Shown here one piece after another: positions 2,496-56,497 of a stretch of 64,000 nucleotides of DNA. Positions within the stretch are counted from its first letter, which is position 1, and the number at the start of each line of letters is the position of its first letter. Source of the stretch: a virus (taxonomy: Duplodnaviria > Caudoviricetes); IMG/VR virus record IMGVR_UViG_2924769383_000001, positions 2,059 through 66,058 of that record; one strand, 5' to 3'. The position numbers and the translations under genes are program-made. Below the pieces are notes generated by a model. It had not been told where the DNA came from and did no database searches. It saw only the letters and a list, made by a program, of their open reading frames with translations.

Positions 2496-2708
2496 TTAAG
2501 CCGCCACCCTACGTCCCTTACCCGGCACGTTGTCATTAGCCGCAAGCCGCAAGCGGCGGGCCATGCCAGTCGACCAGGCTTCCCCCTTGGCACCATAGTA
2601 GTTGGCGATATTGCGCGCCGTCTGTGGATCGATGTTTGGGTCTATGGCGTTGAACGTGCCGCCTTCGCAGTATGGGCCGATGCCGTTGTAGTCGTTGTTG
2701 TCGTTCAT
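2496..2708 (-). CDS. Small protein ending in ssrA-like tag
   Basis: SD GAGGAGAG upstream; C-terminus AANDNVPGKGRRVAA. Confidence 0.8.
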   Translation of the reverse strand: MNDNNDYNGIGPYCEGGTFNAIDPNIDPQTARNIANYYGAKGEAWSTGMARRLRLAANDNVPGKGRRVAA

Positions 2709-2762
2709 TGTGTCTCTCCTCTGGTTGCGGGTTATTGCTGCGCAATAAGCGGCAAGGGCTAG

Positions 2763-2948
2763 CTAGATTGCTGGCATCTCGAACCGGCAGCCGCGCAACC
2801 AACCCACTATGCTGCGCTCGCCTACGACCACAGCATAAAAGCCAAGATCGATAAGCCGCTCTTGCGCGTTGATGGCCGGTATGTTGCCGCACCGCCAGAA
2901 TCTGGCTATGCGGTCAGCGTTGTTGATTGTGTCGATGAGGGTAGCCAT
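2763..2948 (-). CDS. Hypothetical protein
   Basis: ATG at 2948 (MATLIDTINNADR...) overlaps stop of upstream ORF. Confidence 0.6.
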   Translation of the reverse strand: MATLIDTINNADRIARFWRCGNIPAINAQERLIDLGFYAVVVGERSIVGWLRGCRFEMPAI

Positions 2949-3127
2949 TAGCGCGCACCTACGCGTTGCCGCCAAGCGGTCTCGCCGTGCTGCTCAATGA
3001 AATTCTCGAGCCTGTCGGCAAGCGCACTGAACAGCAGCGCTGTTTGCTTCTTGCCGTGCGACTTCTCGCATCCGCGTGCCAGTTCGGTTATGGCGCGCAA
3101 CTCGGCTTCGGCTTGTTGGTTGATCAT
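2948..3127 (-). CDS. Hypothetical 59-aa protein (below ORF-track cutoff)
   Basis: Read manually: MINQQAEAELRAITELARGCEKSHGKKQ...VGAR*. Confidence 0.55.
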   Translation of the reverse strand: MINQQAEAELRAITELARGCEKSHGKKQTALLFSALADRLENFIEQHGETAWRQRVGAR

Positions 3128-3372
3128 GACACACCAGCCGCAACACAGATAACGCCGACCGCAAAGCAGGCCAAGACAATGCCAGCCATAACCGCCTGCG
3201 GGAAGCTTACGGATGACTCCTTGCGGTGCATCTGTCGGGCATATGCACTCCCATTGACCATGAAGGAGCGGCGGGGGTCGCGCCCAACAAAAAGCCCGCC
3301 GTGTGCCAACAGCGGGCTGCTAGTGTTCCTGTCCATGCGAATCTCCTAACGACATTGCGTTAGGAGCATCAA

Positions 3373-3388
3373 TAGGCGCTTTCGCCTA
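3373..3388. promoter_or_regulatory. 16-bp operator overlapping leftward promoter
   Basis: TAGGCG-CTTT-CGCCTA perfect 6-bp inverted repeat; TTGACT on minus strand at 3392-3397. Confidence 0.8.
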
Positions 3389-3430
3389 ATTAGTCAACAA
3401 CATAATATAAAAACGCCTACCGCCGCCTAC

Positions 3431-4258
3431 CTACTGCTCACGCCGGGGCTTGCGGCCTGCATTCTTCGCAATTACGCGCACGCGCTCACGCGAAAGGCCG
3501 TGGCTTTCGGCGATAGACGACAATGACTCGCCGTTATCAAAACGGGCCAATATATCCCTATGTCTGTCGTCGCCCTTCTTGGTGACGCTCTCGGCGCGAC
3601 GCGGCCTTGTAATGAACGAAGCCTGCACAATGCCGGTAATGGTTACTTCTTCCGCGCCGCCATATTGCAGCGGCGCCTGATGCTGTGGGTCTGACGAGCG
3701 AGGCCACAGCCAGCGAACACCGTCTTCGCCGAGAACGTATTCTTTCAGGGATGCCTCGACCAAGCCTTGGCGGTCCCGCCGCGTGACAATTACGTGGTCG
3801 CCATGCACAGGCCGCAGGCCGTTCGCAATCGTCGCAGCTACGAATACCACGGCACCATCTGGATAGTAGTTATTCATCGACGTGCCACGTACGATATAGC
3901 CCTGTAGCGGGTAGCCGGGCATGTCTGGATCCAAAAGGGCAGGAACCTTGTATTGGTCGTCGTGGTCCCACTCGATAGCCTCCCGCCAGTCGCCTGCACA
4001 AAGCTCGCCGACAACAGTGACCATCCTTGCCCGAACATCGTCCGGCTCGACCGGCTCGACGCCCACCCACTCGCCATAGGCGACGCCAGCCAGGTCGGCC
4101 AGCTTCATGTTGGGTTCACGCTTCGGCTCCTGCACACCCCGCTCGTACTTAGACACGGTGGATTGATCGACGCCGATTTTGGCGCTCAACTCTTTTTGGT
4201 CGATCCCAAGCCTCGCACGGAGCGCTTTGATTTTTTCAGCCATGCTTTCCATGGACAT
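3431..4258 (-). CDS. CI-like repressor: XRE HTH + S24 autopeptidase + extra C-terminal HTH
   Basis: IKALRARLGIDQKELSAKIGVDQSTVSKYERG; GTSMN Ser and ASLKEY Lys of S24; tail GESLSSIAESHGLSRERVRVI. Confidence 0.9.
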   Translation of the reverse strand: MSMESMAEKIKALRARLGIDQKELSAKIGVDQSTVSKYERGVQEPKREPNMKLADLAGVAYGEWVGVEPVEPDDVRARMVTVVGELCAGDWREAIEWDHDDQYKVPALLDPDMPGYPLQGYIVRGTSMNNYYPDGAVVFVAATIANGLRPVHGDHVIVTRRDRQGLVEASLKEYVLGEDGVRWLWPRSSDPQHQAPLQYGGAEEVTITGIVQASFITRPRRAESVTKKGDDRHRDILARFDNGESLSSIAESHGLSRERVRVIAKNAGRKPRREQ

Positions 4259-4311: not shown

Positions 4312-4476
4312 TATGCGAAAGCGCCTATTTAAGCAATACAAATAGAATAAAACGCCTTTGGTTCCATTCACGCTTAGTTAATTTCTGAAACTGACTGGCC
4401 GCGGCGCGGCTTTTTGCGGTGCCGTAGGCGGTTTCGCATATCGCTGGTTGACATACAAGGCGAAAACGCCTACAAC
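4312..4476. promoter_or_regulatory. Divergent switch region with three operators and rightward sigma70-type promoter
   Basis: TATGCGAAAGCGCCTA 4312-4327, TAGGCGGTTTCGCATA 4425-4440, AAGGCGAAAACGCCTA 4457-4472; TTGACA 4448-4453, 17 nt, TACAAC. Confidence 0.8.
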
Positions 4477-4536
4477 TGGAATTGCGGTTAACGAGTCGCT
4501 TTGTTCTGACCGCCAGGAACCAAGGAAACCAATCAA

Positions 4537-4809
4537 ATGAACAAGACTGGGCGAGCCCGCTTGATGCGGGCCGAGGGGATGTCTTTTGCCGGGATTGCAA
4601 GAGACTTGGGAGTTGGATTGCAATGGGCTTACAAAATGGCCGGTGACGTTCTCTGCAATAACGACAATTCAGCCGTTCGCGGCGCGGAACTGAAGCCTAC
4701 CGCTCAGACGGTGGTCCGCCATGGCGCGATCAACGGCGGATGCTCAACGCAATCCGGCCTCATCGCAATTTCAATGCCGCGGATTACCGCGCTTCACGGT
4801 GCAGCATGA
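4537..4809 (+). CDS. HTH protein, Cro position
   Basis: RAEGMSFAGIARDLGVGLQWAYK HTH; first gene after rightward promoter; contains NNDN, ends GAA. Confidence 0.75.
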   Translation: MNKTGRARLMRAEGMSFAGIARDLGVGLQWAYKMAGDVLCNNDNSAVRGAELKPTAQTVVRHGAINGGCSTQSGLIAISMPRITALHGAA

Positions 4810-5006: not shown

Positions 5007-5209
5007 TCGGCGGAAGGTGCAGAATTCTACTAGGCGAGTACGACGGCAATGTCGTCGGTAAGCGGACCTATATCGGCGAGGCAGACCGTTACGCGGTTCG
5101 CTACTTGGACGATAGCGGGCCGCAGGAACGCTGGTTCCAGGCGCATGAGATTTCATTCGATGGCCGCGAGGCCGAAGGCAATGTGGTGGATTTTAGGAGG
5201 ACGGCATGA
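5003..5209 (+). CDS. Small SH3-like hypothetical protein, probable paralog of 4806..5006
   Basis: GNVVG...YAVRY...ERWF pattern. Confidence 0.65.
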   Translation: MIGGRCRILLGEYDGNVVGKRTYIGEADRYAVRYLDDSGPQERWFQAHEISFDGREAEGNVVDFRRTA

Positions 5210-6687
5210 ATATGCATGTGAAGGCGGAGCTTAAGCTGGAAGCCGGTAAGTCCTATCGCGGCAAGTCTGGCGCAATTCATCGCGTCGAGACGAACGACAA
5301 TTCTGCGTGGCCGTTCAAGACTGCCGACGAAGACCTTGGCGTTAGCCGCTTTTGGAAGATCGACGGCAGCGGGTACAATACCGATGGCTGGAATAGCCGC
5401 GCAATGATCGGCGAAGATCTTGTCGAACTCGCCCCGCGCTTCTCCGTTGGTGACAAGGTGCGTCGTATCAATTTCGACAACAACCCTGTGATGCGTGTTG
5501 GCACTGAATGGATCGTGTCTGGATTCAAGAAGTATCGCGGTGATGACTACCTGGTCTTTCACGGCGGAAGCGACGGAAACGTCAATAATTTCGAACTTGT
5601 ATCTCCCGCCACCTACACCTCCTGCGCCGCAGCCGAAGTCGACAACCCGGCCGACGAGTATGGTGGCGGGAAGAAGTTCAAGGTTGAAGCAGGAAAATCC
5701 TATATCGGTGACGATGGCAAGACGTATGGGCCGCTAAAGGATTACGATTTCGCCGCTGGCCCCTTCATAATCGAACTCGGCGACGGCAACGTTTGGGATG
5801 CTGACGGCAAGTACGGCAAGGGTAATAACATCCGCGTCAACCTCGTTGCCGTTGCGCCAGCAACCGCAACCACATCGTCGGTAAGCGCGCTCCGCATCCA
5901 GCCAGGGCGCTACTACAAGACGCGCGACGGGCGGAAGGTCGGGCCGATGGAAGCGCGCGATGCCTGCGGCAGTAAATACGTGTGGCAATACGATTATGGA
6001 CGTCGCATCTTCCTGCCGGACGGGACCAACTTCGCCGGCCCTAATTCACCGGAAGACCTCATCGCCGAATGGCAGGACGAGCCAGCCGCAGCCGGGTTCA
6101 AAGTGGGGGATCGGGTAGAGAACGTCATTCCCGGCAACGATTACGACATGCTTGGCACAGTCACGGCACTTAAGGGTGAGGCATATCGAGTTCGGTGGGA
6201 CGGCCATTCAAGCGACGAAGGTCTGTCTTGGCGCCCGAACGAATTGCGCCTTGTTGCGTCAGCAACAATCGGCAATCGACCAACCACCATCGCCGACATC
6301 GTGCGCAAGCACAGCGGCAAGGCAGTCGTCATGCTTATCGAGGACGGCCAGCCGAAGCCTTCAACCCTGCCGTTTGTTCACTCTTCTCAGAGCGCAGCCG
6401 CGACCGAGGCCAGCCGCCTTGCTGGCATCAACAAGGGCAAGGAGTTCGGCGTCTACGTGTGCGTCGACGTGAAGAAGGTGGAAAAGACGTATGAGCACGA
6501 ATGGCAGCGGTTGGCGGCGCGGGGTAGCAAGATACCGGCAATCAAGGCTTACCGTGATGCAGGTGGCAAGCGGCAGACCTTCGTCGCGGCCGAATGGGGC
6601 TTCCCGGCACGTTATGAAGATCACCACGTCATTGGCCTAAAGGAAGCCAAGGACGCCGTAGAGCACTGGCTGGCCACAGCCGCATAA
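5206..6687 (+). CDS. Modular repeat protein with C-terminal ribosomal L7/L12-CTD-like motif
   Basis: Repeats xxxGKSY/GRYY and F(S/K)VGD(K/R)V; KIPAIKAYR...IGLKEAKDAVE near C-terminus. Confidence 0.8.
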   Translation: MNMHVKAELKLEAGKSYRGKSGAIHRVETNDNSAWPFKTADEDLGVSRFWKIDGSGYNTDGWNSRAMIGEDLVELAPRFSVGDKVRRINFDNNPVMRVGTEWIVSGFKKYRGDDYLVFHGGSDGNVNNFELVSPATYTSCAAAEVDNPADEYGGGKKFKVEAGKSYIGDDGKTYGPLKDYDFAAGPFIIELGDGNVWDADGKYGKGNNIRVNLVAVAPATATTSSVSALRIQPGRYYKTRDGRKVGPMEARDACGSKYVWQYDYGRRIFLPDGTNFAGPNSPEDLIAEWQDEPAAAGFKVGDRVENVIPGNDYDMLGTVTALKGEAYRVRWDGHSSDEGLSWRPNELRLVASATIGNRPTTIADIVRKHSGKAVVMLIEDGQPKPSTLPFVHSSQSAAATEASRLAGINKGKEFGVYVCVDVKKVEKTYEHEWQRLAARGSKIPAIKAYRDAGGKRQTFVAAEWGFPARYEDHHVIGLKEAKDAVEHWLATAA

Positions 6688-8016: not shown

Positions 8017-8637
8017 ATGGCCAAATTCGGCGTATCAATTGCAGTCACTGAAGAGAGCACAGAGCAGCGCGGCGAGTACGACAATCTCCCAAATGGCGTA
8101 TATCGCCTTGAGATCAGCGCGGCAGAAGTTAAGCGTAAGAACGAGGGCACGCAGCAAGAGGCGTCTGGCTTCAAATGCACCTTTGACGTGGTAGACCCAG
8201 AAGACCTGCGCGGACGCAAGGTGTTCGGCTACTACAATCTCAGCAACCCGTCAGCGCAAGCGCAGGAGATCGGCCAGAAGCAGTTTTCGCAGCTGCGTCG
8301 TGCCTTGGGTTTCGGCGACGTCGATGCCGAGATGGAAGAGCAGGACGTCATTGATGAAATGCGCCTGGTACCATTCGTTGCCACCATCGGCATGGGCAAG
8401 GTCCAGTACGAGAAAAAGCCGAATGGCGAAATCGTCAAAGACGCCGCTGGAAATCCAGTCGTTAAGTACGAAGCATCGAACGAAATCAGGCGCTACTGGT
8501 ATCCCGACCTGGACGACGCGCCGCCCATCGGCGTGACCGCCGCAGCGAATGACAACAAGGCTACGGCGAAGGTCGTGGCAAAGCCTGCGACCGTGGAGGC
8601 TAAGCCCGCCGTGGGCAGCAAGCCGTGGAAGCGGTAG
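8017..8637 (+). CDS. DUF669-like ssDNA-binding protein
   Basis: Follows Sak4; LPNGVYRLEI...GRKVF...SNEIRRY; internal AAANDN. Confidence 0.8.
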   Translation: MAKFGVSIAVTEESTEQRGEYDNLPNGVYRLEISAAEVKRKNEGTQQEASGFKCTFDVVDPEDLRGRKVFGYYNLSNPSAQAQEIGQKQFSQLRRALGFGDVDAEMEEQDVIDEMRLVPFVATIGMGKVQYEKKPNGEIVKDAAGNPVVKYEASNEIRRYWYPDLDDAPPIGVTAAANDNKATAKVVAKPATVEAKPAVGSKPWKR

Positions 8638-9246: not shown

Positions 9247-10281
9247 ATGCTTGTTTCCAAGCAGGATTTCGCGCGCCTACTGGCAAGCGTCGCCAAGGCC
9301 GTGCCCACACGCAACACAATTCCTATCTTGGCTACAGTTCGGCTTGTTGCCGCGTCCGGTCGCTTGACGGCAACCGCAACTGACCTCGATGTCGAGATCA
9401 CCGGCAGCATTGAGTCCGAAGGCGACTTCTCTGCGTGCATCGATGCAAAGTTGCTTGCAGGAATCGTTGCCAAGGTGGCTGGCGACGCCATCGAAATTGA
9501 TGCTGGCGAGGGCGGCGCTACGCTTAAGGCAGGACGTTCAAAGTTCAAACTCGAGACGCTACCTGTTGAGGATTATCCTTCGCTGGACCACGGCAAGTTC
9601 GACGCTGAGTTCGAGGCCGACTTGGCGGCGCTGCTCGGCGCAGTGTCTTTCGCCATGTCGCAAGAGCAGAATCGCCACTATCTTTGCGGTGTGTTCCTGC
9701 AGCCTGAAGCCGTGACGGCAACGGACGGACATCGCCTGGCCACGCGCAAGCTCGATAAGCTCGGCAAGTTTAAGCCGGTCATTGTGCCGCGTAACCTGGT
9801 GCCAATGCTGCCCGCAGGCAAGGCGGTTGTTCGCTTGTCTAGCGGCAAGATCCAGATTGAGCATGCGACTTCCACAATCACATCGCGCTTGGTGGACGGG
9901 ACGTTCCCCGACTACGAGCGCGTCATTCCTGCCAATAACAACAAGATTGCAACCGTCGATGCTGACGCTTTGCGGCAGGCGGCTGGGCGTGTGGCGCTGA
10001 TCTCCAACGAGCGAGGCAAGGGCGTCAAGCTTGTCGTCAACAACGACGGAATCGGCCTGTGGGCGCGTGGCAGCGGTGAGGCCGAGGACTCGGTTGAAGC
10101 CACATACGAAGGCGAGCAGGTAGAGGTTGGCATGAATGCCCAATACCTGGCCGACATCCTTACCGCCATGCCGGACGGCGCCACATACGTTGCAATTAAT
10201 GATGGCGGTTCTCCCGTGCTGTTTACGTCGCCGGCTGATGCGTCTCTGCGCATTGTAGGCATGCCAATGAGGGTCTGGTGA
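9247..10281 (+). CDS. dnaN: DNA polymerase III beta sliding clamp
   Basis: RNTIPILATV, TATDLDVEI, ATDGHRLA, RLVDGTFPDYERVIP, GMPMR C-terminus. Confidence 0.95.
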   Translation: MLVSKQDFARLLASVAKAVPTRNTIPILATVRLVAASGRLTATATDLDVEITGSIESEGDFSACIDAKLLAGIVAKVAGDAIEIDAGEGGATLKAGRSKFKLETLPVEDYPSLDHGKFDAEFEADLAALLGAVSFAMSQEQNRHYLCGVFLQPEAVTATDGHRLATRKLDKLGKFKPVIVPRNLVPMLPAGKAVVRLSSGKIQIEHATSTITSRLVDGTFPDYERVIPANNNKIATVDADALRQAAGRVALISNERGKGVKLVVNNDGIGLWARGSGEAEDSVEATYEGEQVEVGMNAQYLADILTAMPDGATYVAINDGGSPVLFTSPADASLRIVGMPMRVW

Positions 10282-10502: not shown

Positions 10503-10889
10503 CATGCCTCGCCGCACTCATCCATGGCGGCAAAGTCTTCATTGGCGGCGATAGTGCCGCCAGTGTTGACGCCGCCGTAGAGGTTCGCCTCAACCGCAAG
10601 GTCTTTCGTAACGGCGCCTATGTGATCGGTACCCGCCATCCTGAAGCTTGCCGGCAAGGAGATGGACGAGCTTCTTATGGGGGAGGGCGGCAGGTTATTC
10701 AAAATCTCGTCTGACTATAGCGTTGCGGAATATCCGTCTTACGCCGCAGCGGGTCAAGGTGAGCCATATGCGCTCGGCAAGCTTCACGGTTCATTGGGCG
10801 CACCAGAACAGCGTGTGGTGGCCGCCCTGGCTGCTGCTGAGGCTCATTGTGGTGCAGTGCGTGCGCCGTTTCATGTTGAGGTAATATAG
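10499..10889 (+). pseudogene. HslV/proteasome-beta-like Thr protease, internally deleted and frameshifted
   Basis: MTCLAAL...GGDSA...RKVF in one frame; AAAGQGEPYALGKL...AAAEAHCGAVRAPF in another; junction near 10628-10631. Confidence 0.65.
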
Positions 10890-11848
10890 TGCCAGCATTC
10901 CCGCGCCCAACGCCGTCGACTGTCCGCGCTATCTATGCGGCGTATGAGGCCGCTAACGAGCATTACGATAGCTTGGGCATCAGCGTTGGTGAGATCGGCA
11001 CGGAGTGCGACAGGGCGCTTTGGTATACGCTGCATTGGGCAAGCCAGCCGGAGCAGCTTGACGGGCGCAAGCTGCGCCTGTTCCAGACCGGCAACCTCGA
11101 GGAAGAGCGGCTTGTCGCCGACCTTGAGCGCATCGGCGTCGAAGTCTACGGCCAGCAAGATCGCATTCGACTTGTCTCCGGGTTCGTCCGCGGCAAGTGC
11201 GACGGCAAAGCGATGGGCATCATTGAAGCGCCAAAGACCGAACACCTGCTGGAGTTCAAGTCGACCAACGAAAAAGGAATGAAGGAACTCCAAAAACTGA
11301 AGGTCAAGGAAGCTAAGCCTCTTCATTACGGCCAGTGCCAAATCGGAATGCACGCCTTCGGACTTAGCAGGTGCTTCTACCTGGCCGCATGCAAGAACAC
11401 TGACACGCTCTACAGCGAGAGGATCGAGTACGATGCGGAATACTGCCTCCGGCATCTAGCGCGCGTTGAGCGCCTTGTGCTGGCCGCCGAGCCGCCATCG
11501 AGAATATCGGAGAAGCCCGACTTTTTCGGATGCATGTTCTGTTCGCACAAGGACGTATGCCACAGCGGAAAATGGGCGCGGGTGACCTGTCGTTCTTGCG
11601 TCCACTCGACGCCCGAGTTGGGTGGGGATTGTCATTGGTCTTGTGCCCGGTTCAGCAAGCCATTGTCTATCGATGAGCAGAAGGCCGCATGTCCTGCGCA
11701 TCTGTACCAGCCCGCCTTAGTACCAGGCACAGTCGAAAGCGTGGACGAAGAAGCAGAGCAAATAACGTATCGCCTTAGCAATGGCGAGCTATGGACAGAC
11801 GGCGAAACTAGAGAAGACACCAAAGACAACGCACAGGAAGCAGCATGA
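10889..11848 (+). CDS. Cas4/YqaJ-like PD-(D/E)XK exonuclease
   Basis: GTECDRALWY, GKCDG, LLEFKS, HYGQCQ, CMFCSHKDVC; no CRISPR array in window. Confidence 0.85.
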   Translation: MPAFPRPTPSTVRAIYAAYEAANEHYDSLGISVGEIGTECDRALWYTLHWASQPEQLDGRKLRLFQTGNLEEERLVADLERIGVEVYGQQDRIRLVSGFVRGKCDGKAMGIIEAPKTEHLLEFKSTNEKGMKELQKLKVKEAKPLHYGQCQIGMHAFGLSRCFYLAACKNTDTLYSERIEYDAEYCLRHLARVERLVLAAEPPSRISEKPDFFGCMFCSHKDVCHSGKWARVTCRSCVHSTPELGGDCHWSCARFSKPLSIDEQKAACPAHLYQPALVPGTVESVDEEAEQITYRLSNGELWTDGETREDTKDNAQEAA

Positions 11849-12363
11849 CACGCCCCAAAGAGTTTGATGCCAAGGTCATCCAGTGGCTGCCCTTCTTAAG
11901 GAAAATGGCGTTCAAGATGGAGCGCAGTGCGCAGGACCGTGAAGACCTGGTCAATGAAACTGTCGTGACCGCCTTGCATCGCTGGGCGTCCTATAGAGAG
12001 GGCGGCAGCTTTCCGGGTTGGCTGGTGTTTCAAATGCGCGAGCGTTGTCACGCCATGAGGTCTAAGAAATCTTCCGCAGCAGCGCTAAGCCTTGATGCGA
12101 AGGAGGAAATGGCCGGCAGCAACGACAATCATGCGCCTTGGTTCAGGGATCTTTCGGCCGCTTCATTGCCAGCCACCCAATCTGATGCTGTCGAGCTTGC
12201 TCAGGTATTCGACGCCATACCAAGGCGGTATCATACGGTTATGGCAAAGCTTGCCGCAGGTTACGAGCAGAAGGAAATTGCCGCATCGGAAGGCGTGTCG
12301 AGGCAAGCCATCCATCAACGCATTACAGCCTGTCGCGCACGTTTGAAGAAAGTTGCTGCTTAA
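11845..12363 (+). CDS. ECF sigma-factor-like regulator
   Basis: DREDLVNETVVTAL, FPGWL (region 2); GYEQKEIAASEGVSRQAIHQRI (region 4). Confidence 0.85.
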   Translation: MTRPKEFDAKVIQWLPFLRKMAFKMERSAQDREDLVNETVVTALHRWASYREGGSFPGWLVFQMRERCHAMRSKKSSAAALSLDAKEEMAGSNDNHAPWFRDLSAASLPATQSDAVELAQVFDAIPRRYHTVMAKLAAGYEQKEIAASEGVSRQAIHQRITACRARLKKVAA

Positions 12364-14093
12364 TGGCGCTCCGCTACTACCAGACCGAGGCTAAGCAGGC
12401 CGTGATGGACTACTGGGCAGAGACGCCCGGTAATCCATTGGTGGTCGCCGCCACCGGCACTGGCAAGAGCATGATGCAGGGATCCTTGACCTGCGACTTG
12501 CTCGACGGCTGGTCGGACCTTCGTATCATGAACACGACTCACGTCGTGGAGCTGGTCGAATCCAACTTCAAGGAATTGGTGGGCATGCGCCCCTTCGCGC
12601 CCGTCGGTATATGGGCAGCGTCTTTGGGCCGTGCTGACAGGCAGGCGCAGGTTCTGTTCAGTCAAATACAAACCGTCCACGACAAGGCCGAAGCCATCGG
12701 CCATGTCGACATCCTTCAAATTGATGAAGCCCACCTGGTGCCCTTTAAGCAGGCTACGATGTATCGCCGGCTGATCGACGCCTTGCTGGTGGTCAATCCG
12801 GACATGAAAATCAACGGCTTTACGGCCACCGATTTTCGCCTTGACGGGGGGCGCCTGACCGAGGGCGACGGCAAGCTGTTTGATGAGGTGGTTTATGACT
12901 ACGGCCTGCGGCGCGGTATCGATGACGGATATCTAACGCCGATCACCAGCAAGCCTGTTGGCACGAAATACGACATGACCGGCGTTGGTCGCTCGATGGG
13001 CGAATATAAGGCAAGCGACTATCGCGCAGCGGTAGATACAGAGACGCTAAATCAGCGCGTCATTGAGGAAGTTCTAGATACAGAAGGGCACCGCAATAAG
13101 GCTCTTATTTTCTGCCGCGGCGTCGAGCACGCCGGGCACATCAGGGATGCTTTCCGGAAGGCTGGGCGCAACGTCGAATTGGTCCACGGGGGAACGCCAG
13201 GCGGGGAACGTCGAAGGCTCATTGACAGGCTGAAGTCGGGCGAGATTTGGGGCCTAGTCAACGACAACATCCTTAGCACTGGAACGAACATCGTCGGCGC
13301 CGATCTACTGGTGGACTTATATCGAACGATGTCGGCTAGCCGCTATGTGCAGCGCGCCGGACGCCTAACGCGCGTCATCTACCCGCCAGGATTTGATCCG
13401 GAGGCGGTCGACGCCGAGGCTCGCCGCGCCGCGATCGCGTCATGGATCAAGCCAAACGGCAGGTACATGGATTTCGCCGGCAACATCAATGAGCACGGCC
13501 CGGTAGACATGGTTCAGCCGCGTAAGCCTGGCAGCGGTCAAGGCGAGGCGCCTATCAAGCTTTGCCCTTCGTGTGAGGAGATTTGCCACGCATCGGCTCG
13601 AGTTTGCCATTGCTGTGGGCATCAGTTCGTCTTTGAGGAAAAGCCTAAGTTTGCCGAGCGGGCAAGCGACGCGCCTATCATTTCCATTCAGTCAGACATG
13701 TGGCGCACTGTCACCGGCCGCCGCTTCTTCGAGCATCCCGGCAAAGAGGGCAAGCCGCCTAGCGTGAAGTGCTCGTACACTTGCGGGTTCCTTAATGTGA
13801 ATAGCTGGTACTGCCCGCAGCACCAGGGCTTTGCGAAAACAAACTCTGACCGCTTCTGGAAAGCTCACGGCGGTAAGACACCTTATCCTGACAACGTGGA
13901 GTCGTTCTTACTTCGCCAACACGAATTGAACGACACCGCTGAAATCGAGATTGAATACAACGGCAAGTGGCCCAACGCCAAGGCGTACAGGGCTGCCGCT
14001 ACGAACGACAATCAACGACAGGCGGATAACGATAATGAGCCGGTATCGGCTGGAATGAGGGACGTACTAGACGGAGATTTCATACCGTTTTGA
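12363..14093 (+). CDS. SF2 DEAD/DEAH-like helicase with C-terminal Zn ribbon (RadD/UvsW-like)
   Basis: AATGTGKS, IDEAH, GFTAT, YVQRAGRLTR, KLCPSCEE...CHCCGH. Confidence 0.92.
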   Translation: MALRYYQTEAKQAVMDYWAETPGNPLVVAATGTGKSMMQGSLTCDLLDGWSDLRIMNTTHVVELVESNFKELVGMRPFAPVGIWAASLGRADRQAQVLFSQIQTVHDKAEAIGHVDILQIDEAHLVPFKQATMYRRLIDALLVVNPDMKINGFTATDFRLDGGRLTEGDGKLFDEVVYDYGLRRGIDDGYLTPITSKPVGTKYDMTGVGRSMGEYKASDYRAAVDTETLNQRVIEEVLDTEGHRNKALIFCRGVEHAGHIRDAFRKAGRNVELVHGGTPGGERRRLIDRLKSGEIWGLVNDNILSTGTNIVGADLLVDLYRTMSASRYVQRAGRLTRVIYPPGFDPEAVDAEARRAAIASWIKPNGRYMDFAGNINEHGPVDMVQPRKPGSGQGEAPIKLCPSCEEICHASARVCHCCGHQFVFEEKPKFAERASDAPIISIQSDMWRTVTGRRFFEHPGKEGKPPSVKCSYTCGFLNVNSWYCPQHQGFAKTNSDRFWKAHGGKTPYPDNVESFLLRQHELNDTAEIEIEYNGKWPNAKAYRAAATNDNQRQADNDNEPVSAGMRDVLDGDFIPF

Positions 14094-14843: not shown

Positions 14844-15551
14844 ATGTTGACCACACCCGGCATCGGCCACAACCAACCACCAGACCCCATTGACGAAGCG
14901 CTTACCGCCATCCACGACCTATACGACGAAGCGCTAAACTTCGCGGACGGCGCCGCCATCGACTCAGAGGCAATGCACGACACCGTGACAGCATTGCGAG
15001 ACGCGATCCACGAGGCCGGTAAGGCTGCGGATGCATTGCGCGTAGAGGCCAAGCGCCCATTGGACGAGCAGATTGCCGCCATTCAGGAGCGGTTTAATCC
15101 GGCCATCCAGCCTAAGAAAGGCATGGTCGACCGCGCTAAGGCAAGCCTAGGCGAACTGCTCGCCGCATGGCGCAAACAAGAGGCCGACAAGAAGGCCGCC
15201 ATTGCAGCCGCAGCACGCCTTGAGGCCGAGCGCATCGCCAAGGAAGCACAGGATGCTATCCGCGCCAGCGCCGGCAATCTTGCGGCACGCGAGGAAGCGG
15301 AAGCGCTTTTGGTGGAGGCTAAGCAGGCCGAGAAGCAGGCTAAGCGCGACGATAAGGCTGCGACTAGCGGGTTGGGCTTGCGTACCGTGTGGCGGGCCGA
15401 GTTGGTTGACGTCGAGAAAGCGCTGGACTGGTGCTATGGGCGCGATCCCGATGCTTTCCGTGCGCTGTGCCAATCGCAGGCGGATACCGTCGTGCGGGCC
15501 GGTATGCGGTCTGTGCCGGGGTTTAGGGTGTTTGAGGATAAAATCGTATGA
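14844..15551 (+). CDS. Coiled-coil protein, Gam/gp157-like
   Basis: GIGHNQPP N-terminus, long helical body, GLRTVW...VPGFRVFE tail. Confidence 0.7.
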   Translation: MLTTPGIGHNQPPDPIDEALTAIHDLYDEALNFADGAAIDSEAMHDTVTALRDAIHEAGKAADALRVEAKRPLDEQIAAIQERFNPAIQPKKGMVDRAKASLGELLAAWRKQEADKKAAIAAAARLEAERIAKEAQDAIRASAGNLAAREEAEALLVEAKQAEKQAKRDDKAATSGLGLRTVWRAELVDVEKALDWCYGRDPDAFRALCQSQADTVVRAGMRSVPGFRVFEDKIV

Positions 15552-16927
15552 CGACCGAACTAGCACCAACCCAAGTCTTCCTCGACGGCAAGGTAGAACT
15601 GCGCCCCGGTGATTGCCGCGACGTTATCAAAGCTATGCCGGATAATAGCATTGATAGCGTTGTTTGCGACCCGCCTTACGCACTGGTGAGCATCGTTAAG
15701 CGGTTCGGGGGGCCGAATGCAGCGCCATCGAACGATGGCGACGTGTATTCGCGTGCCTCAGCCGGCTTCATGGGCCGCACTTGGGACACAGGCGAGACGG
15801 CATTCGCCGAGACGTTTTGGGCCGAGGTGCTACGCGTCCTCAAACCTGGCGGGCATGTCGTGGCGTTCTCCGGCACGCGCACCTATCACAGGATGGCGGT
15901 TGCTATCGAGGATGCGGGGTTTGAAATCCGTGACCAGTTGGCTTGGTGTTACGGCTCGGGATTTCCGAAAAGTCACGATGTCAGCAAGGCTATTGATAAG
16001 CATTTTGGTGCGGTGCGCGAGAAGGAGCGGCACACCAACGTGCGCAACCCGAAGGCTACCGGTGGCGGAAAGGACGGAACAGAAGGTGCGACGCGTCCAT
16101 GGATAGAGGCTGCCATGGCGCGGGGATACCACGAGAAGGATGGCGACGAAGCTGCCACTCCGCAGGCTGCGGAGTGGCAAGGCTGGGGCACCGCTCTGAA
16201 ACCAGCATGGGAGCCTATATGCCTTGCGCGCAAGCCGCTGATTGGCACGGTTGCCGCCAACGTGCTCGAGCGCGGTACCGGCGCACTGAATATCGACGGG
16301 TGTAGGGTGGGAACAGAAGGCGGAACGGCCAAAGGCCGTTCCGCTGACAAATCAACCACGGACAGTGTTGGCTGGTATCTCAACGCAAAAGCCGGAACAC
16401 CAATCGACGCCGGCCGCTGGCCTGCCAACATCGTGCACGACGGCAGCGACGAGGTTGTGGCGTGTTTTCCTGATGCTCCGGGACAGCAACGTGCGGTTGG
16501 CCCGCAACATGGCGCAAAAGCCAGCGTTAACACATACGGCGACTATGGCCCTCGCGACGATTTCCAGCCGCGTCTAGACCAAGGCTCCGCCGCCCGCTTC
16601 TTCTACACCGCCAAGGCGGACAAGCTAGACCGCATCGGCAGCAAGCACCCGACCGTAAAGCCTGTCGACCTGATGCAATGGTTGGTGCGGCTCGTAACGC
16701 CGCCTGATGGCGTTGTGCTAGATCCGTTTGCAGGCTCTGGCTCGACTGGCGAGGCGGCTTGGCGCGAGGGGATGCGCTGCATCCTGATTGAGCGCGAGGA
16801 GGAATATCAGACCGACGTCGCCGCCCGTCTCAGCCTGGCCGACAAAGGGCCGACTACGCGCAAGGCGAGGGCCATCAAGCAGGCAGCGAATGACAACGAC
16901 CTGCCGTTGTTCGGAGCAGCCGCATGA
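15548..16927 (+). CDS. N4/N6 DNA methyltransferase with large internal insertion
   Basis: VCDPPY, HPTVKP, VLDPFAGSGSTG; ends AANDNDLPLFGAAA. Confidence 0.92.
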   Translation: MTTELAPTQVFLDGKVELRPGDCRDVIKAMPDNSIDSVVCDPPYALVSIVKRFGGPNAAPSNDGDVYSRASAGFMGRTWDTGETAFAETFWAEVLRVLKPGGHVVAFSGTRTYHRMAVAIEDAGFEIRDQLAWCYGSGFPKSHDVSKAIDKHFGAVREKERHTNVRNPKATGGGKDGTEGATRPWIEAAMARGYHEKDGDEAATPQAAEWQGWGTALKPAWEPICLARKPLIGTVAANVLERGTGALNIDGCRVGTEGGTAKGRSADKSTTDSVGWYLNAKAGTPIDAGRWPANIVHDGSDEVVACFPDAPGQQRAVGPQHGAKASVNTYGDYGPRDDFQPRLDQGSAARFFYTAKADKLDRIGSKHPTVKPVDLMQWLVRLVTPPDGVVLDPFAGSGSTGEAAWREGMRCILIEREEEYQTDVAARLSLADKGPTTRKARAIKQAANDNDLPLFGAAA

Positions 16928-17265
16928 CCACCCCCAACCCACACCCCAACGTCTGCCACGTCTGCGGAATGACCGGCTGCGGCCTCGGCATTGGCTTTTC
17001 CCATTCCCGCGACGCAGACCCAAAGTGGCTTTGCATTGAGTGCAGCCTGATCATTGAGGATATCAAGAAGGTTAAAAGGCTCGACGTCTACGAGCTTAAG
17101 GCGAGGGAGGGCGGCGTAGAGGCCGCCGCGCCTGTTGTGGAGGCTTACGGCACGGACCTGGCGGAATATACCGACGAGCAGGCGGCCATGTTGGCAGGTG
17201 CCATCTGGAAAGGCTGCGCGGCACGGTTGAGGGAACTGATTAGAGATGGGAGCGCGCCGTTTTGA
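16924..17265 (+). CDS. Conserved phage protein (DUF6511-like)
   Basis: CHVCG...WLCIEC; frequently near primase genes. Confidence 0.6.
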   Translation: MTTPNPHPNVCHVCGMTGCGLGIGFSHSRDADPKWLCIECSLIIEDIKKVKRLDVYELKAREGGVEAAAPVVEAYGTDLAEYTDEQAAMLAGAIWKGCAARLRELIRDGSAPF

Positions 17266-17385: not shown

Positions 17386-17631
17386 GTGAGGTGCTTGACT
17401 TCGCTCCCAATTACGAGAGCAAAGACAATGTTCCGCGATAGGAGCAATTGGCATCGGTGGTTCGCCTGGTATCCGGTCAGATTGCTGCCCTATCAGGCGC
17501 AACTTACCGTCGATCCTATACGCAGATGGGTCTGGCTGCAGGTCGTGGAGCGCATCTGGTTTGACGAGGTTCCACTCTACAGGAGTTTCAATCGCGGCTG
17601 GGTGTATCAGCGCAAGGGGTGGAGTACATGA
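17386..17631 (+). CDS. Hypothetical Trp-rich protein
   Basis: WHRWFAWYPVRL...WVWLQVVER motif common in phages. Confidence 0.65.
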   Translation: MRCLTSLPITRAKTMFRDRSNWHRWFAWYPVRLLPYQAQLTVDPIRRWVWLQVVERIWFDEVPLYRSFNRGWVYQRKGWST

Positions 17632-18431
17632 AACACGACAATGACAACGTGACATATCCTGTATCTCATTCAAATGACACCCAGTATATGTCACATCACG
17701 ATGTCACAAACCCTACTACTAAATCACATTCACGCCCAGAATATGTGACACCTGCGGCAAACGACAATTTTCCGACAAAGATTGCCGCGCTCTACGTGGA
17801 AACCAATGGTGCTTACTATGGTTTGCCTGACATATATCCATGGGATGAAGCTAGGGACGCACGCAGGTACAGCGGACCGTATCCAGTAATCGCTCATCCT
17901 CCGTGCCAACGGTGGGGCAAACTGTGGGCCGGCCAACCTCTCTGGATTGCGCGCACTGGTGAGCGCAAGATTAAGGGCGACGATGGCGGTTGCTTTGCCG
18001 CGGCGCTGTCGTCGGCGCGTACCTATGGAGGCGTTATCGAACATCCGTGGGGTAGCCATGCGTGGGCGCATTTCGGCATAAACAAGCCGCCTCGATCGGG
18101 TGGGTGGATTGCGGCCGACTTCCATGGAGGATGGACGTGCTGCGTCGAGCAAGGAAGGTATGGGCACTACGCGCGCAAGCCAACAATGCTGTTGGCATAC
18201 CGAGTTACCTTGCCGGAACTTGATTGGGGCATTGGCGAGCCGCGCCTTGATCCGGCAGTAATTGAGCGTATGGGCCTTAAGCGAGCAAAGCGCATGGGTG
18301 AACTTGGACAGCGCGGAGGGGGGCAGAACAGCACGCCACGCATTCACACTCCGATTCCGTTCCGCGACCTTCTTATAGCTATGGCACGCACCGCGGCCAA
18401 CGGCAATCAGGAAGCGCGCCGTGCGGCCTGA
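17619..18431 (+). CDS. Divergent C5-cytosine methyltransferase-like protein
   Basis: VIAHPPCQRWG (PC motif), GVIEHP (ENV-like), RKPT; SAM-binding motif degenerate. Confidence 0.6.
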   Translation: MEYMKHDNDNVTYPVSHSNDTQYMSHHDVTNPTTKSHSRPEYVTPAANDNFPTKIAALYVETNGAYYGLPDIYPWDEARDARRYSGPYPVIAHPPCQRWGKLWAGQPLWIARTGERKIKGDDGGCFAAALSSARTYGGVIEHPWGSHAWAHFGINKPPRSGGWIAADFHGGWTCCVEQGRYGHYARKPTMLLAYRVTLPELDWGIGEPRLDPAVIERMGLKRAKRMGELGQRGGGQNSTPRIHTPIPFRDLLIAMARTAANGNQEARRAA

Positions 18432-21119: not shown

Positions 21120-21300
21120 GTTTTGCAACCATAGGTAACGCCCCAGTCGATGCGCCCCAGTCAGATTTTCAGCGCGTGGCATCGGGGCACACTACTGCCC
21201 CGCCCCACCCTTATAGGGAGGGTGCGGGGGTAGGGATGCAGCGCCCCAGTGAGTAAAATCAGGTGGGGCACTTTTGGTTGGGCAAGAAGGAAAATTAGAA

Positions 21301-21810
21301 ATGGCTAAATCATCGAAATCCACCCGCCGCCAGACCACCACCCGCATCAACGGCAAGCGCATGCGCCTCGTTACACAGAACGGCAAGACGGTCGTGTCCG
21401 ATGCTCCGATAGAGGAATGGCGCTTGCAGGCTGAGGCTGTCCGCCAGCTTAGGGCGATGCCGGAATATGCGGCCAGCGCAGAAGACGCCACAACGGCAAG
21501 CTTCACCCTGGCTGCCGACTTCAACGCGGGCAAGCGGGACGCAGCCAAGGCCAAGGCTACCGGCGTAACCGCGGGCGAGACGGATCTTCGCGTGTATGGC
21601 TCTGCGGGCCGCCTGCTGCTTGTCGAGTACAAGAACGCGGAAGGCCGGTTGAGCGGCGACCAGAAGGACAGACACGCTCTCCTCCGCGCCTTGGGCTATC
21701 GCGTTGAGGTTATCAAGGCCTCGACGCCAGAAGAGTGCGCCGTGGCTTCGGTAAGCCTAGTCCGCTCATGGCTCGCGGCAAACGACAATAATTGCTCATT
21801 AGCCGCCTGA
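21301..21810 (+). CDS. VRR-NUC domain nuclease
   Basis: GVTAGETDL...LVEYKNAEGRLSGDQ; ends AANDNNCSLAA. Confidence 0.85.
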   Translation: MAKSSKSTRRQTTTRINGKRMRLVTQNGKTVVSDAPIEEWRLQAEAVRQLRAMPEYAASAEDATTASFTLAADFNAGKRDAAKAKATGVTAGETDLRVYGSAGRLLLVEYKNAEGRLSGDQKDRHALLRALGYRVEVIKASTPEECAVASVSLVRSWLAANDNNCSLAA

Positions 21811-21821: not shown

Positions 21822-22256
21822 TTGGTATGGGACTGTAAGCCGCTAAATATGGGGACTGGGATGCGGAACGATGCGACAATTACGATATTGGATATCCCGG
21901 AGAATGTTACGTTGCCGGACGGAGCAACAGTGAGCAGACATGACGCAGATGCGCACATAAAAAAATCATATGGGAAGCCCTGTGTCGGCTATGTATTGCC
22001 AGCAAAGGGCAATGGCCTGATTGTCTATGCGGCATTTTCACCCAATGTAGAGCGCGACGAAAACGGCGACTGGCAGCGCGATGGTGAAAACATAACGTGG
22101 CATGCTACATTCAAGTCGGCATCCAGATTGGTGAAGAAGGGGTATCGCTCGCTAGACCGCATTGAAAATTGCGACGAAGAAGATTGGTGGGTAGGTGATT
22201 ACGCGGAGGACAACGATAACGACAACGAAGACGATTATTATTTGGAGGCCGCATGA
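21822..22256 (+). CDS. Acidic hypothetical protein (start probably near 21850-21861)
   Basis: ORF ends DNDNDNEDDYYLEAA, coupled to next gene. Confidence 0.65.
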   Translation: MVWDCKPLNMGTGMRNDATITILDIPENVTLPDGATVSRHDADAHIKKSYGKPCVGYVLPAKGNGLIVYAAFSPNVERDENGDWQRDGENITWHATFKSASRLVKKGYRSLDRIENCDEEDWWVGDYAEDNDNDNEDDYYLEAA

Positions 22257-23664: not shown

Positions 23665-23742
23665 CGCGGGCTAGCTCAATCCGGTAGAGCGCCAGGCTCA
23701 TAACCTGGAGGTTTCGGGTTCAAATCCCGAGTTCCGCAACCA
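23665..23742 (+). tRNA. tRNA-Met(CAT), initiator-like
   Basis: C1.A72 mismatch, CCAGG-CTCATAA-CCTGG, TTCAAAT T-loop, encoded CCA; one extra nt in acceptor 3' strand. Confidence 0.88.
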
Positions 23743-23784
23743 AATAAGGGAATATCCCATGTCGTCGTCCAGTACCGCCAATCA

Positions 23785-23872
23785 GGAGAGGTGACAGAGC
23801 GGTAATGTGCCTGTTTGCTAAACAGTAGCCAACCGAAAGGTTGCGTGGGTTCGATCCCCATACTCTCCGCCA
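23785..23872 (+). tRNA. tRNA-Ser(GCT)
   Basis: Loop TTGCTAA, long variable arm with GAAA loop, G73, CCA. Confidence 0.88.
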
Positions 23873-51465: not shown

Positions 51466-51471
51466 GCGTTT

Positions 51472-51522
51472 TAGGCGGTTTCGCATGTGATTGTTGACAA
51501 GAAAGGCGAAAGCGCCTATAAG
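51472..51522 (+). promoter_or_regulatory. Second operator pair and promoter matching the immunity switch
   Basis: TAGGCGGTTTCGCATG 51472-51487, TTGACA 51494-51499, AAGGCGAAAGCGCCTA 51503-51518, TATAAG 51517-51522. Confidence 0.85.
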
Positions 51523-53785: not shown

Positions 53786-53794
53786 GAGGGAATT

Positions 53795-54121
53795 ATGTGC
53801 GCAGTTAGCATGGTTGGCGATCACTACAATGAGAAATGGCACGACCAGCCTTGGGCTAAGCCGCTGCAGCCATTTCGCGTCTATCCCGAAGGGTGGCCCT
53901 TGACGCCAACTAAGGTTGAGGCGGTTCCATCCGTTTATGTGTCGAAGCTAGAATTTGACGCTCTTAAGAAGGACGTCGAAGAAATGAAGGCGCTGCTCAT
54001 TCGCGCCAAGGAATACGATGAGCGCAACAATGAGCCGCACTGCGAAATCGAAGACAAGGTTGCCTTACTCAAGCGCGTCGCCGAGGCGGTAGGCGTAGAC
54101 CTGTCAGAGGTATTCAAATGA
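53795..54121 (+). CDS. Hypothetical protein
   Basis: SD GGAGGG; MCAVSMVGDHY...EPHCE motif. Confidence 0.75.
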   Translation: MCAVSMVGDHYNEKWHDQPWAKPLQPFRVYPEGWPLTPTKVEAVPSVYVSKLEFDALKKDVEEMKALLIRAKEYDERNNEPHCEIEDKVALLKRVAEAVGVDLSEVFK

Positions 54122-54312
54122 AGATCAAGAATGATGGTGGTCAGGCTTTCCCATACAATACGGCATGGGGCACGCCAGGCATGACGCTGCGCGACTGGTT
54201 CGCGGGGCAGGTTATTGCCGGTCACTTCCACATTGATCCGGCAGTCCAGTACAGTTACGCGCAGACGGCTTACACAATGGCCGACGCCATGCTCGCGGCT
54301 CGCGACAAATGA
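54118..54312 (+). CDS. Conserved small phage protein
   Basis: DGGQAFP..GMTLRDWFAGQ..AYTMADAMLAAR. Confidence 0.8.
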   Translation: MKIKNDGGQAFPYNTAWGTPGMTLRDWFAGQVIAGHFHIDPAVQYSYAQTAYTMADAMLAARDK

Positions 54313-54597
54313 CCCAGTTCGCATGGGCCGGCGTCTGCTTCGCGGCGTTCCTGGTTGCGGCGGGCACGTTCAGTGCTGTCGGTCTTTGGTGGTTGGGAGA
54401 GGAGGAGGAGGTGTGATGGATATCTGGCATGGCGCGCAATGGGTGTTGGCAACCTATTTTGCGATGATGACGGCGATCAATTTCTTCGGCGTTACGCTAC
54501 AGAAGACATCCTATCCGACACGGGCAGGGTGGCTGTTCGGAAAGCTTGCGACGCGGTCGGCTCTAGTTGCCGTACTATATTGGGGAGGCTTTTGGTC

Positions 54598-55017
54598 ATG
54601 ATCGCCTCAACCTGGCTCTGCCTTATGCTCACACTTGCCGCCTACGCATGGTTCGCCTATCGCACACCTTACGTGCTTCCAATCCTGGCCGCAGCGGCAG
54701 CCTTTGCGATGTACGTGCCAACCGGCACGCCGCGCCTTACGGCGCCGCCCGCTGGACACTACGAAGTGCTTGGCGCCGACATCGTGGTCGACCAGTACAT
54801 TGATGCGCTGCTTAAGCCGGAGGGTGGCGAAGCCATGCTTTACCGCCTGCCGTATAGCACAGCGCAAGCCAATGCATTGCAGGCTGCCAAGGATGGCGGC
54901 AACGGCGTTAGCGCCGAAGTCGGCACCGATGGTGGGGTTGCTTATGACGGCGACCCGCCCGTTACCGACACTGAGAATAAGCATGCGGAAGAGCCGCAAT
55001 TGAACGTTGGAGGGTGA
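54598..55017 (+). CDS. Membrane-anchored hypothetical protein
   Basis: Two N-terminal TM segments then GTPR..YRLPYS. Confidence 0.7.
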   Translation: MIASTWLCLMLTLAAYAWFAYRTPYVLPILAAAAAFAMYVPTGTPRLTAPPAGHYEVLGADIVVDQYIDALLKPEGGEAMLYRLPYSTAQANALQAAKDGGNGVSAEVGTDGGVAYDGDPPVTDTENKHAEEPQLNVGG

Positions 55018-55229
55018 TTATGGACGACGGATGGATTGAGTGGCGCGGCGGGGAGTGTCCGGTTGATGGCGACGTGACTGTTGAGGTTCGTTTTCAAAAT
55101 ATGCGCCACGAAGAGGGCGAGCCAACTACGATCGAGATGGCGGGCGCTATGTGGTGGGACCATCGCGAGTACGGAGGTGTAGACAGCCCTGGAAATATTC
55201 TGGCCTACCGCATCCACAAGGAATCCTGA
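55014..55229 (+). CDS. Small conserved phage protein
   Basis: GWIEWRGGECPV..VEVRF..ILAYRI. Confidence 0.75.
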   Translation: MIMDDGWIEWRGGECPVDGDVTVEVRFQNMRHEEGEPTTIEMAGAMWWDHREYGGVDSPGNILAYRIHKES

Positions 55230-56497
55230 TTTTGCCAACACCATCAGTCACAGACGAAGCCATCGCCGCGACCGTAGCGGCGCGCCAGGCGCACAAGACC
55301 AATGTCGACGCAGCCAAGGCGCTCGGCATTGATGAGAAGACCGTGCGCCGCCACATGACGCTTGCTGCGGAGCGGGGGATGTTAGGCTTCAATCCTGTGC
55401 TCGACGGCTTTGCCGTGTCTCAGGTCTCGGGCAAGGTCGACGGCCATTGGGTCAAGCAGCGTAAGGCGGCTGGCGAAGTCTTTGAAGTGCCGGTCGGCCA
55501 AAAAATCAAGGGCGTCAGTGCGCTCGTGGATCCCGATGGGCGCGAGCTTATCAAGTGGATTAAGACTGATGCCGCGCGCGAAGTGCAACAGAAAGCCTTT
55601 GAGGCGATGGTTGCGGCTTTTGCAGACGCGCTGCCTCGCGCTGAACCGGTTCCTGTACCGCGATGGACTAACGCCGACTTGCTCTGCCAGTACACCATTA
55701 CGGATGCACACCTTGGCGCTCTGGCATGGAATGAGGAAACGGGAGGCGGGGATTACGATCTCTCAATTGGCGAGGAACTGCTGATCGACTGGTTTGCGGC
55801 GGCTATTGCAACATCGCCACCGGCCAAGCGAGCCGTCTTTGCTCAGCTTGGCGACTTCCTTCACTATGACTCGTTCAAGAGCATAACGCCGGAACACGGT
55901 CACTTGCTCGACGGCGACACGCGCTACCCAAAGATGGTGCGGGCAGCCATTCGCGTGGTGCGTACCGTAATACGCCTCTTGCTCGAAAAGCACGAGCAAC
56001 TCGACATCATCATGAGTGACGCCAACCACGACCCATCAAGCGAGGTGTGGCTGCGCGAGATGCTTGCCGCATTTTACGACCATGAGCCACGTATCAAGGT
56101 AGATACCAATCCCGGCACATACTCGATGCTCGAGCATGGCGACGTCACGCTCTTTTATCATCACGGTCATCGTCGCGGTGTCGGCCAAGTCGACTCAGTG
56201 TTCGTCGGCAAATTCCGCGAAGCCTATGGTCGCACTCGTTTCTCATATGCGCACGTCGGTCATAAGCACGCCGATGAATTGAAGACCACCAATCTAATGA
56301 AGGTTGAGCAGCATGAGACGCTAGCCGCGCCCGACGCCTACGCGGCGAACGGCGGATGGCTATCCGGTAGGTCGGCCAAGGTCATCTACTACCATTCGAA
56401 GTTCGGATACGTGGGCCGCAACATCATGACTCCGGAAATGGTTGCCGGTGCCTACCTGGCCGCTAATGACAACGAACCGAAGGAGATGGCGGCGTGA
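55151..56497 (+). CDS. HTH + calcineurin-like metallophosphoesterase (start probably TTG 55232)
   Basis: ITDAHLG, LGDFLH, DANHD, YHHGH, GHKH; ends AANDNEPKEMAA. Confidence 0.85.
   Translation: MVGPSRVRRCRQPWKYSGLPHPQGILILPTPSVTDEAIAATVAARQAHKTNVDAAKALGIDEKTVRRHMTLAAERGMLGFNPVLDGFAVSQVSGKVDGHWVKQRKAAGEVFEVPVGQKIKGVSALVDPDGRELIKWIKTDAAREVQQKAFEAMVAAFADALPRAEPVPVPRWTNADLLCQYTITDAHLGALAWNEETGGGDYDLSIGEELLIDWFAAAIATSPPAKRAVFAQLGDFLHYDSFKSITPEHGHLLDGDTRYPKMVRAAIRVVRTVIRLLLEKHEQLDIIMSDANHDPSSEVWLREMLAAFYDHEPRIKVDTNPGTYSMLEHGDVTLFYHHGHRRGVGQVDSVFVGKFREAYGRTRFSYAHVGHKHADELKTTNLMKVEQHETLAAPDAYAANGGWLSGRSAKVIYYHSKFGYVGRNIMTPEMVAGAYLAANDNEPKEMAA

Follow-up and report, generated by a model that had tools for sequence, protein, structure and literature searches.

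The tag encoded by the transfer-messenger RNA (tmRNA) of Caulobacter starts with AANDN and ends with AA, and the adaptor SspB speeds the turnover of proteins that carry it (PMC9393093). Here, we describe genome-encoded tails that resemble this tag on many proteins of a tailed phage (Caudoviricetes), in a stretch of 64,000 nucleotides (the window; positions 2,059 to 66,058 of IMG/VR record IMGVR_UViG_2924769383_000001) whose own numbering is used throughout. The phage tails share with the native alphaproteobacterial ssrA tag the five-residue head, the Ala-Ala end, and the disordered C-terminal place, and at 11–15 residues they are close to its 13–14. They differ in being encoded in frame before ordinary stop codons rather than added by trans-translation; their middle, often with x-Pro after the head, is unrelated to that of the host tag; and AANDN also occurs alone, at N termini and in linkers.

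Two other systems are close enough for comparison. In the integration-dependent immunity of mycobacteriophages, the integrase and the repressor carry C-terminal ssrA-like tags (Broussard et al. 2013, as described in PMC9635641). By that second-hand account, these tags let host ClpXP-type proteolysis set protein levels. Both those phages and this one are temperate and hard-code ssrA-like tags; the mycobacteriophage tags, however, act on Int and Rep to drive the lysis–lysogeny switch, whereas here the motif lies on a dozen other, early enzymes, and the phage's own repressor and integrase end with neither NDN nor AA. The tails described here also include a head of the adaptor-binding kind, which the mycobacterial tags are not described as having. 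The second system is the N-terminal fragment of RseA in E. coli, a natural SspB cargo whose SspB site lies apart from its ClpX degron (Flynn et al. 2004, cited in PMC5587285 and bioRxiv 2020.06.12.148478). As the citing texts describe it, RseA resembles the present case in being a genome-encoded protein with its adaptor site away from the degron, as an isolated AANDN would be. RseA is a single host regulator, whereas a phage-wide set is concerned here, and its SspB-binding sequence is not known to copy the ssrA tag. A literature search found no description of AANDN or of ssrA-tag mimicry across phage proteomes.

Tag-like tails in the phage proteome

The tag-like tails are real and far beyond chance expectation. 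Seven proteins end in a C-terminal tail of 11–15 residues with an A-A/M-N-x-N head and an Ala-Ala end (Table 1); the head is exactly AANDN in four of them and a variant (AANGN, AMNDN, or AANQN) in the other three. A six-frame scan for A-[A/M]-N-[D/G/Q]-N returned 11 sites, eight of them exact AANDN; each is in the coding frame of a long open reading frame (ORF). Carriers of the motif comprise a DNA methyltransferase, a VRR-NUC nuclease, an exonuclease/phosphoesterase-like protein, an HNH endonuclease, an SSB-like protein, and a helicase, together with two proteins without assigned function, one small protein, and, weakly, the portal; the tails lie past the ends of the Pfam and PHROG domains.

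Chance was gauged on 95 selected ORFs (20,651 residues), each shuffled 2000 times within the protein. AANDN occurs seven times in these ORFs (eight with the small ORF 2496–2708) against a shuffle mean of 0.0185, and Ala-Ala C termini are found on 12 proteins (12–13 of about 95) where 1.34 would be expected; 0/2000 shuffles equalled either count. A first-pass annotation made from the sequence had claimed seven C-terminal tails, and all are found at the genes it named, with AANDN and AA ends far above shuffled controls. Its worry that GC bias or GCATGA stop/start overlaps might yield the terminal AA proves unfounded: among alternative-frame ORFs, an AA end is found in just 2.1%, and the overlap is present in only 4/12 AA-ending proteins, so neither source explains the excess. 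All four Ala codons, both Asn codons, and both Asp codons are used at the motif; synonymous codons thus vary freely, and selection therefore acts on the peptide, as that annotation had also proposed.

One codon detail stands apart from this. The eight exact sites (2543, 8542, 16883, 17754, 21775, 22358, 56459, and 59367) use only AAT-GAC-AAC or AAC-GAC-AAT, and AAC-GAC-AAC, dominant in relatives, is found at 0/8 (P about 0.03; mildly unusual). Avoidance of that 9-mer is ruled out, as it is present five times elsewhere in the genome.

Table 1. Motif sites, Ala-Ala ends, and promoter/operator cassettes, in window coordinates
Feature	Gene or protein	Position	Strand	Remark
15-residue complete tail (AANDN ... 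AA)	70-residue protein, 2496–2708	2499–2543	-	
Isolated AANDN in Ala/Pro-rich tail	DUF669/SSB-like protein, 8017–8637	8542–8556	+	31 residues before end
Two degenerate heads (A-T-NDN, A-D-NDN) in tail	SNF2/ResIII helicase, 12363–14093	13998–14036	+	
14-residue complete tail (AANDN, LPLFG motif, AAA)	N6/N4 DNA methyltransferase, 15548–16927	16883–16924	+	
N-terminal AANDN	phrog_12600 protein, 17619–18431	17754–17789	+	12 residues ending AA, then protein continues; just before conserved domain
12-residue C-terminal tail (AANGN ... AA)	phrog_12600 protein, 17619–18431	18393–18428	+	Variant head
11-residue complete tail (AANDN ... AA)	VRR-NUC nuclease, 21274–21810	21775–21807	+	
N-terminal AANDN	phrog_36072 protein, 22253–23134	22358–22372	+	
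15-residue C-terminal tail (AMNDN ... AA)	phrog_36072 protein, 22253–23134	23087–23131	+	
12-residue tail (AANQN ... RAA)	Portal, 26907–28172	28134–28169	+	Weakest case
12-residue complete tail (AANDN ... AA)	phrog_704 exonuclease/metallophosphoesterase-like protein with helix-turn-helix, 55151–56497	56459–56494	+	
Isolated AANDN	HNH endonuclease, 58695–59429	59367–59381	+	20 residues before end; protein without AA end
AA end without NDN head	4537–4809		+	
AA end without NDN head	5206–6687		+	
AA end without NDN head	10889–11848		+	
AA end without NDN head	Sigma-like, 11845–12363		+	
AA end without NDN head	21822–22256		+	
AA end without NDN head	Capsid, 29304–30527		+	
AA end without NDN head	56494–56694		+	
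AA end without NDN head	DUF6378, 58303–58698		+	
Promoter/operator cassette adjoining repressor gene		4425–4480	+	Inverted repeat TAGGCG...CGCCTA around TTGACA box
Second cassette copy		~51470–51520		Inverted repeat TAGGCG...CGCCTA around TTGACA box

Host tmRNA tags and host genomes

Related prophages are found in 11 bacterial genomes, and the tmRNA gene was read in eight of these. In 8/8, the tag starts with ANDN, ends with AA, and has 12–13 residues plus the Ala that comes from tmRNA charging; the phage head AANDN equals this charged Ala followed by the ANDN start, with five of five residues identical. The host genome also carries sspB in 5/5 cases searched, and the encoded SspB is clearly homologous to the Agrobacterium and Caulobacter SspB proteins whose structures have been solved; in 4/5 rhizobial host genomes (loci L014–L023), sspB lies within about 200–300 bp of ssrA. 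On the phage side, there is no SspB family match among the proteins and no tmRNA gene in the window, and none of the ORFs has a ClpX-binding tail motif like that of SspB.

In five whole host genomes, the AANDN DNA pattern gives 8–19 matches each, and a reversed-pattern control gives 0–1. In three of these genomes (6–6.6 Mb), 13/15, 14/19, and 7/9 of the matches fall within a single prophage of 55–67 kb, where the density of AANDN is about 300–600-fold higher than in the rest of the genome. Both host comparisons speak for the proposal of the first-pass annotation, which had likened the tails to tmRNA tags and had named equal motif frequency in host genes as the result that would tell against this: the tags of related hosts all start with ANDN and end with AA (eight genomes), and 7–14 of 9–19 sites cluster in one prophage (three genomes).

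With every site in a coding frame, an excess of several hundred-fold that no shuffle reaches, 0–1 matches to reversed patterns, varying synonymous codons, and a motif that is kept while spacers diverge, the notion that the sites have no function and are compositional accidents, DNA-level repeats, or neutrally drifting scars of gene fusion is close to refuted. What would fit it is the tag-like stretch near the N terminus of the phrog_12600 protein, which is followed by more protein as if a small tagged ORF had been fused to the next gene, and the variable extensions past the motif in methyltransferase relatives.

Taken together, the statistics, the host tags, the host-genome controls, and the conservation in relatives strongly support mimicry of the alphaproteobacterial tmRNA tag at the protein level. 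Mimicry is the simplest account of the five-residue head identity, the tag-like length, and the terminal Ala-Ala, and the disordered placement, the peptide-level selection, and the near-absence from host chromosomes fit the same account.

Conservation and spread among phages

The closest named relative of this phage is Sinorhizobium phage NV1.1.1 (~73% nucleotide identity from portal to capsid), and its closest protein relatives are encoded by prophages of Mesorhizobium, Rhizobium, Sinorhizobium/Ensifer, and Neorhizobium. Among exonuclease relatives with 60–81% identity, about 95/120 have AANDN, a variable spacer of 5–8 residues, and a final AA or VA; the tail is appended after the end of the conserved domain, at which point a minority of relatives stop, tail-less. 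An AlphaFold model of the exonuclease, built on the alignment of its relatives and the one protein modelled, gives residues 397–411 a predicted local distance difference test score below 50 and no secondary structure. More distant exonuclease clusters have the tail in just 1/149 representatives, a near-absence that places its addition in the rhizobial branch. About 15% of the distant representatives (P0241–P0389) end in Ala-Ala directly after the domain, without an NDN head, so that AA ends of this bare kind may be older in the family, or more general, than the tail. The possibility that the mimic tracks the tags of other host clades does not hold for the exonuclease: a Rhodocyclaceae relative has an AA end with neither an NDN nor an NDE head, and an ANDE-type head is found in 0/149 of the distant representatives.

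Exact AANDN sites number 10 in phage 16-3, whose exonuclease is 51% identical to that of this phage, and 11 in TM3_3_14B. Rhizobium phages Y5A and TM3_3_9, the exonucleases of which are without the tail, have one site each, and there is none in a Pseudomonas phage whose exonuclease belongs to the same family. Seeding a scan of the viral collection with a single codon version of AANDNxP gave at least 120 stretches, and 69 further AANDN sites lie in the 1.1 Mb of stretches listed; nine of these are in 57 stretches (496 kb) with less than 10% homology to this phage group, where about 0.1 would be expected. At equal pattern information, the collection has at least 117 stretches with the phage-type AANDNVP, 30 with the host-type continuation AANDNYA, and eight with the E. 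coli-type AANDENY.

The phage also encodes a beta sliding clamp of three domains (Pfam DNA_pol3_beta N, central, and C; 9247–10281, plus strand), and most carriers are DNA-metabolism proteins, which are typical clamp clients. AANDN might thus be a docking motif for a phage-encoded hub such as this clamp or another replication protein, the likeness to ssrA being coincidental and the terminal AA a separate matter. The clamp is present in 4/4 motif-rich phages (this phage, 16-3, TM3_3_14B, and NV1.1.1) and in 0/2 motif-poor Rhizobium phages (Y5A and TM3_3_9); such co-occurrence may, however, only mirror shared ancestry, and the nine extra sites in the 57 stretches of low homology also count against a hub. 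In the methyltransferase family, NDN directly adjoins the clamp-motif-like LPLFG, but LPLFG is confined to the methyltransferase tail as a separate neighbour, and AANDN is polar, unlike known clamp-binding motifs, and is without the hydrophobic Leu/Phe core of the QL[SD]LF type. A hub would moreover not explain why all five head residues match the host tag, why the tails are tag-like in length, or why a terminal Ala follows by rule, and we consider docking to one very improbable.

Carrier proteins and their gene setting

The small ORF at 2496–2708 (minus strand) has a GC content at third codon positions of 0.73, like other genes, as against 0.49 for an overlapping ORF of 118 residues, and is, because of this codon-position pattern, taken as the real gene at its locus. 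AANDN of the DUF669/SSB-like protein is at the same position in the relatives from 16-3, Neorhizobium, and Bosea. Where the helicase of this phage has two degenerate heads, its relatives have AANDN plus ANDN, and a degenerate A-x-NDN head is also found inside the primase. The helicase ends in an acidic stretch followed by IPF (14070–14090, plus strand), its relatives ending in VPF, IPF, or LPF, and this acidic-IPF tip is similar to the tip at the C terminus of bacterial SSB. The small protein that comes next, at 16924–17265, ends in APF both here and in NV1.1.1.

In the methyltransferase family, NDN follows A, V, D, or G and adjoins the conserved LPLFG on either side, and many relatives extend past the motif and have no AA end. 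Of 120 methyltransferase relatives, most have LPLFG or GPLFG in their tails (16898–16915, plus strand, in this phage); it resembles a beta-clamp-binding motif and is always next to the NDN head. The VRR-NUC ortholog of NV1.1.1 ends in AAA without NDN. In the phrog_36072 protein, the N-terminal AANDN is kept in the TM3_3_14B and Neorhizobium relatives, and relatives have AANDN where this phage has the C-terminal AMNDN. The portal family has an AA end in 89/120 relatives, with ANDN at the position of AANQN in about 15/120. Several NV1.1.1 orthologs of the proteins that have an AA end and no head are likewise AA-terminated.

The window (GC ~57%) is part of a complete viral record of 66,058 bp with a 49-bp terminal repeat. 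A tyrosine integrase gene lies just beyond the window edge and a CI-like repressor with an S24 peptidase domain is encoded at 3431–4258 (minus strand); the phage is therefore temperate. The promoter/operator cassette beside the repressor gene is present in a second copy, a duplication suggestive of two early units under the same repressor. Every NDN-bearing gene on the plus strand is downstream of one or the other copy, and this position would support an early, repressor-controlled expression class for the plus-strand carriers. The portal gene is also downstream of a cassette, but its head is only the weak AANQN, and a six-frame scan of the window found no exact AANDN site in the structural module (~24.9–48.5 kb). 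Four tRNA genes (Met, Ser-GCT, Ser-TGA, and Thr-TGT) lie between the early and late modules at 23666–24052 (plus strand).

Complete tails, isolated heads, and probable coupling to SspB-ClpXP

Spacing was surveyed in seven complete phage or prophage genomes (this phage, NV1.1.1, 16-3, TM3_3_14B, and three prophages), which have 11–17 A-x-NDN sites each. A terminal Ala follows in 28/30 of the heads placed 11–16 residues from the stop (AA in 20, VA in four) but is mostly missing for those placed 17–35 residues from it; the sites thus fall into two groups, complete tag mimics and isolated heads. Beyond the head, Pro is at position 7 in 40% of sites, often as x-Pro, and the remainder is variable. 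The first-pass annotation had treated the motif as a C-terminal feature, and this part of its interpretation has to be given up, for AANDN also lies near the N termini of the phrog_12600 and phrog_36072 proteins and inside tails and linkers without a terminal AA; its other part, mimicry of the alphaproteobacterial tag, stands on the statistics, host tags, host controls, and conservation given above. Its functional proposal was that routing to SspB/ClpXP would make the tails timers or decoys, with a possible link to CtrA. Conservation in relatives of the isolated sites at N termini and in linkers indicates that the putative adaptor-binding half is the core unit and is also used alone.

From these sequence features, we infer SspB binding, ClpXP degradation, and a physiological purpose, and it is probable, in our judgement, that the tails, encoded in the phage genome, mimic the host ssrA tag and couple early proteins to SspB-ClpXP turnover. 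The AANDN head would copy the part of the alphaproteobacterial tag that is read by the adaptor SspB, and the Ala-Ala carboxyl end the part read by ClpX, both being placed in predicted disordered extensions on ordinary phage proteins, for the most part presumed early, repressor-controlled enzymes of DNA metabolism. With a complete tail of 11–15 residues, SspB would deliver the protein to ClpXP and its lifetime would be short, which could clear protein from leaky expression in the lysogen and restrict the early enzymes in time after infection or induction. An isolated AANDN would tether the protein to SspB, either raising its local concentration at ClpX or merely occupying the adaptor. SspB dimers deliver best with both cargo sites filled (bioRxiv 2020.06.12.148478), and the two proteins that have an N-terminal and a C-terminal motif each (17619–18431 and 22253–23134) fit this behaviour.

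Several points weigh against turnover control. The residues after AANDN, often x-Pro, differ from those of the host tags (Tyr or Asn, then Ala), and the affinity of SspB-alpha could be low if residues after the head are needed. Many N-terminal or internal AANDN sites have no ClpX-type end, and degradation is not the obvious outcome there. The terminal VA is, to our knowledge, not an established ClpX signal, and the portal, whose head is degenerate, would be an odd protein to tag for degradation.

The isolated heads also give the main rival to turnover control its footing, since many heads without a ClpX-type end are what a non-degradable SspB competitor would be expected to look like. Here, the main effect of the motifs binding SspB, and of the AA ends binding ClpX, would be to saturate both, so that other phage or host ClpXP substrates are stabilised or the cell cycle or stress state of the host is shifted; 10–17 sites per genome on co-expressed early proteins could sum to a high concentration. 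A single abundant protein would be enough for such a decoy, yet the motif is found on many unrelated enzymes at conserved places, and the terminal Ala that follows nearly all heads 11–16 residues from the end fits true substrates. We also know of no requirement for SspB by the ClpXP substrates of the cell cycle. A role mainly as a decoy is, on balance, unlikely, although timer and decoy roles are not yet distinguishable.

What the tails may mean for rhizobial phages

AANDN density is a simple marker for prophages and satellites in these genomes, and the tails would provide degrons, tuned by nature and ready for use, for genetic work in Sinorhizobium, Agrobacterium, and Caulobacter. If turnover control is correct, fusions to the tails should be unstable in an sspB- and clpX-dependent manner, and sspB mutants should alter the development of phage 16-3 or NV1.1.1.

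A wider and rather doubtful extension, which we offer tentatively, is that AANDN is a portable short linear motif through which temperate phages and satellites of Hyphomicrobiales plug their whole early proteome into host SspB. The load on trans-translation and ClpXP, with ssrA-tagged host proteins competing for SspB, might then set the stability of the early proteins and so read host translational stress into the lysis–lysogeny choice or into induction.

In some mycobacteriophages, two proteins are known to carry hard-coded ssrA-like degrons. An adaptor-binding head copied onto ten or more unrelated proteins per genome, in many rhizobial phages and prophages, would, if true, be host mimicry on a new scale and with a new logic.

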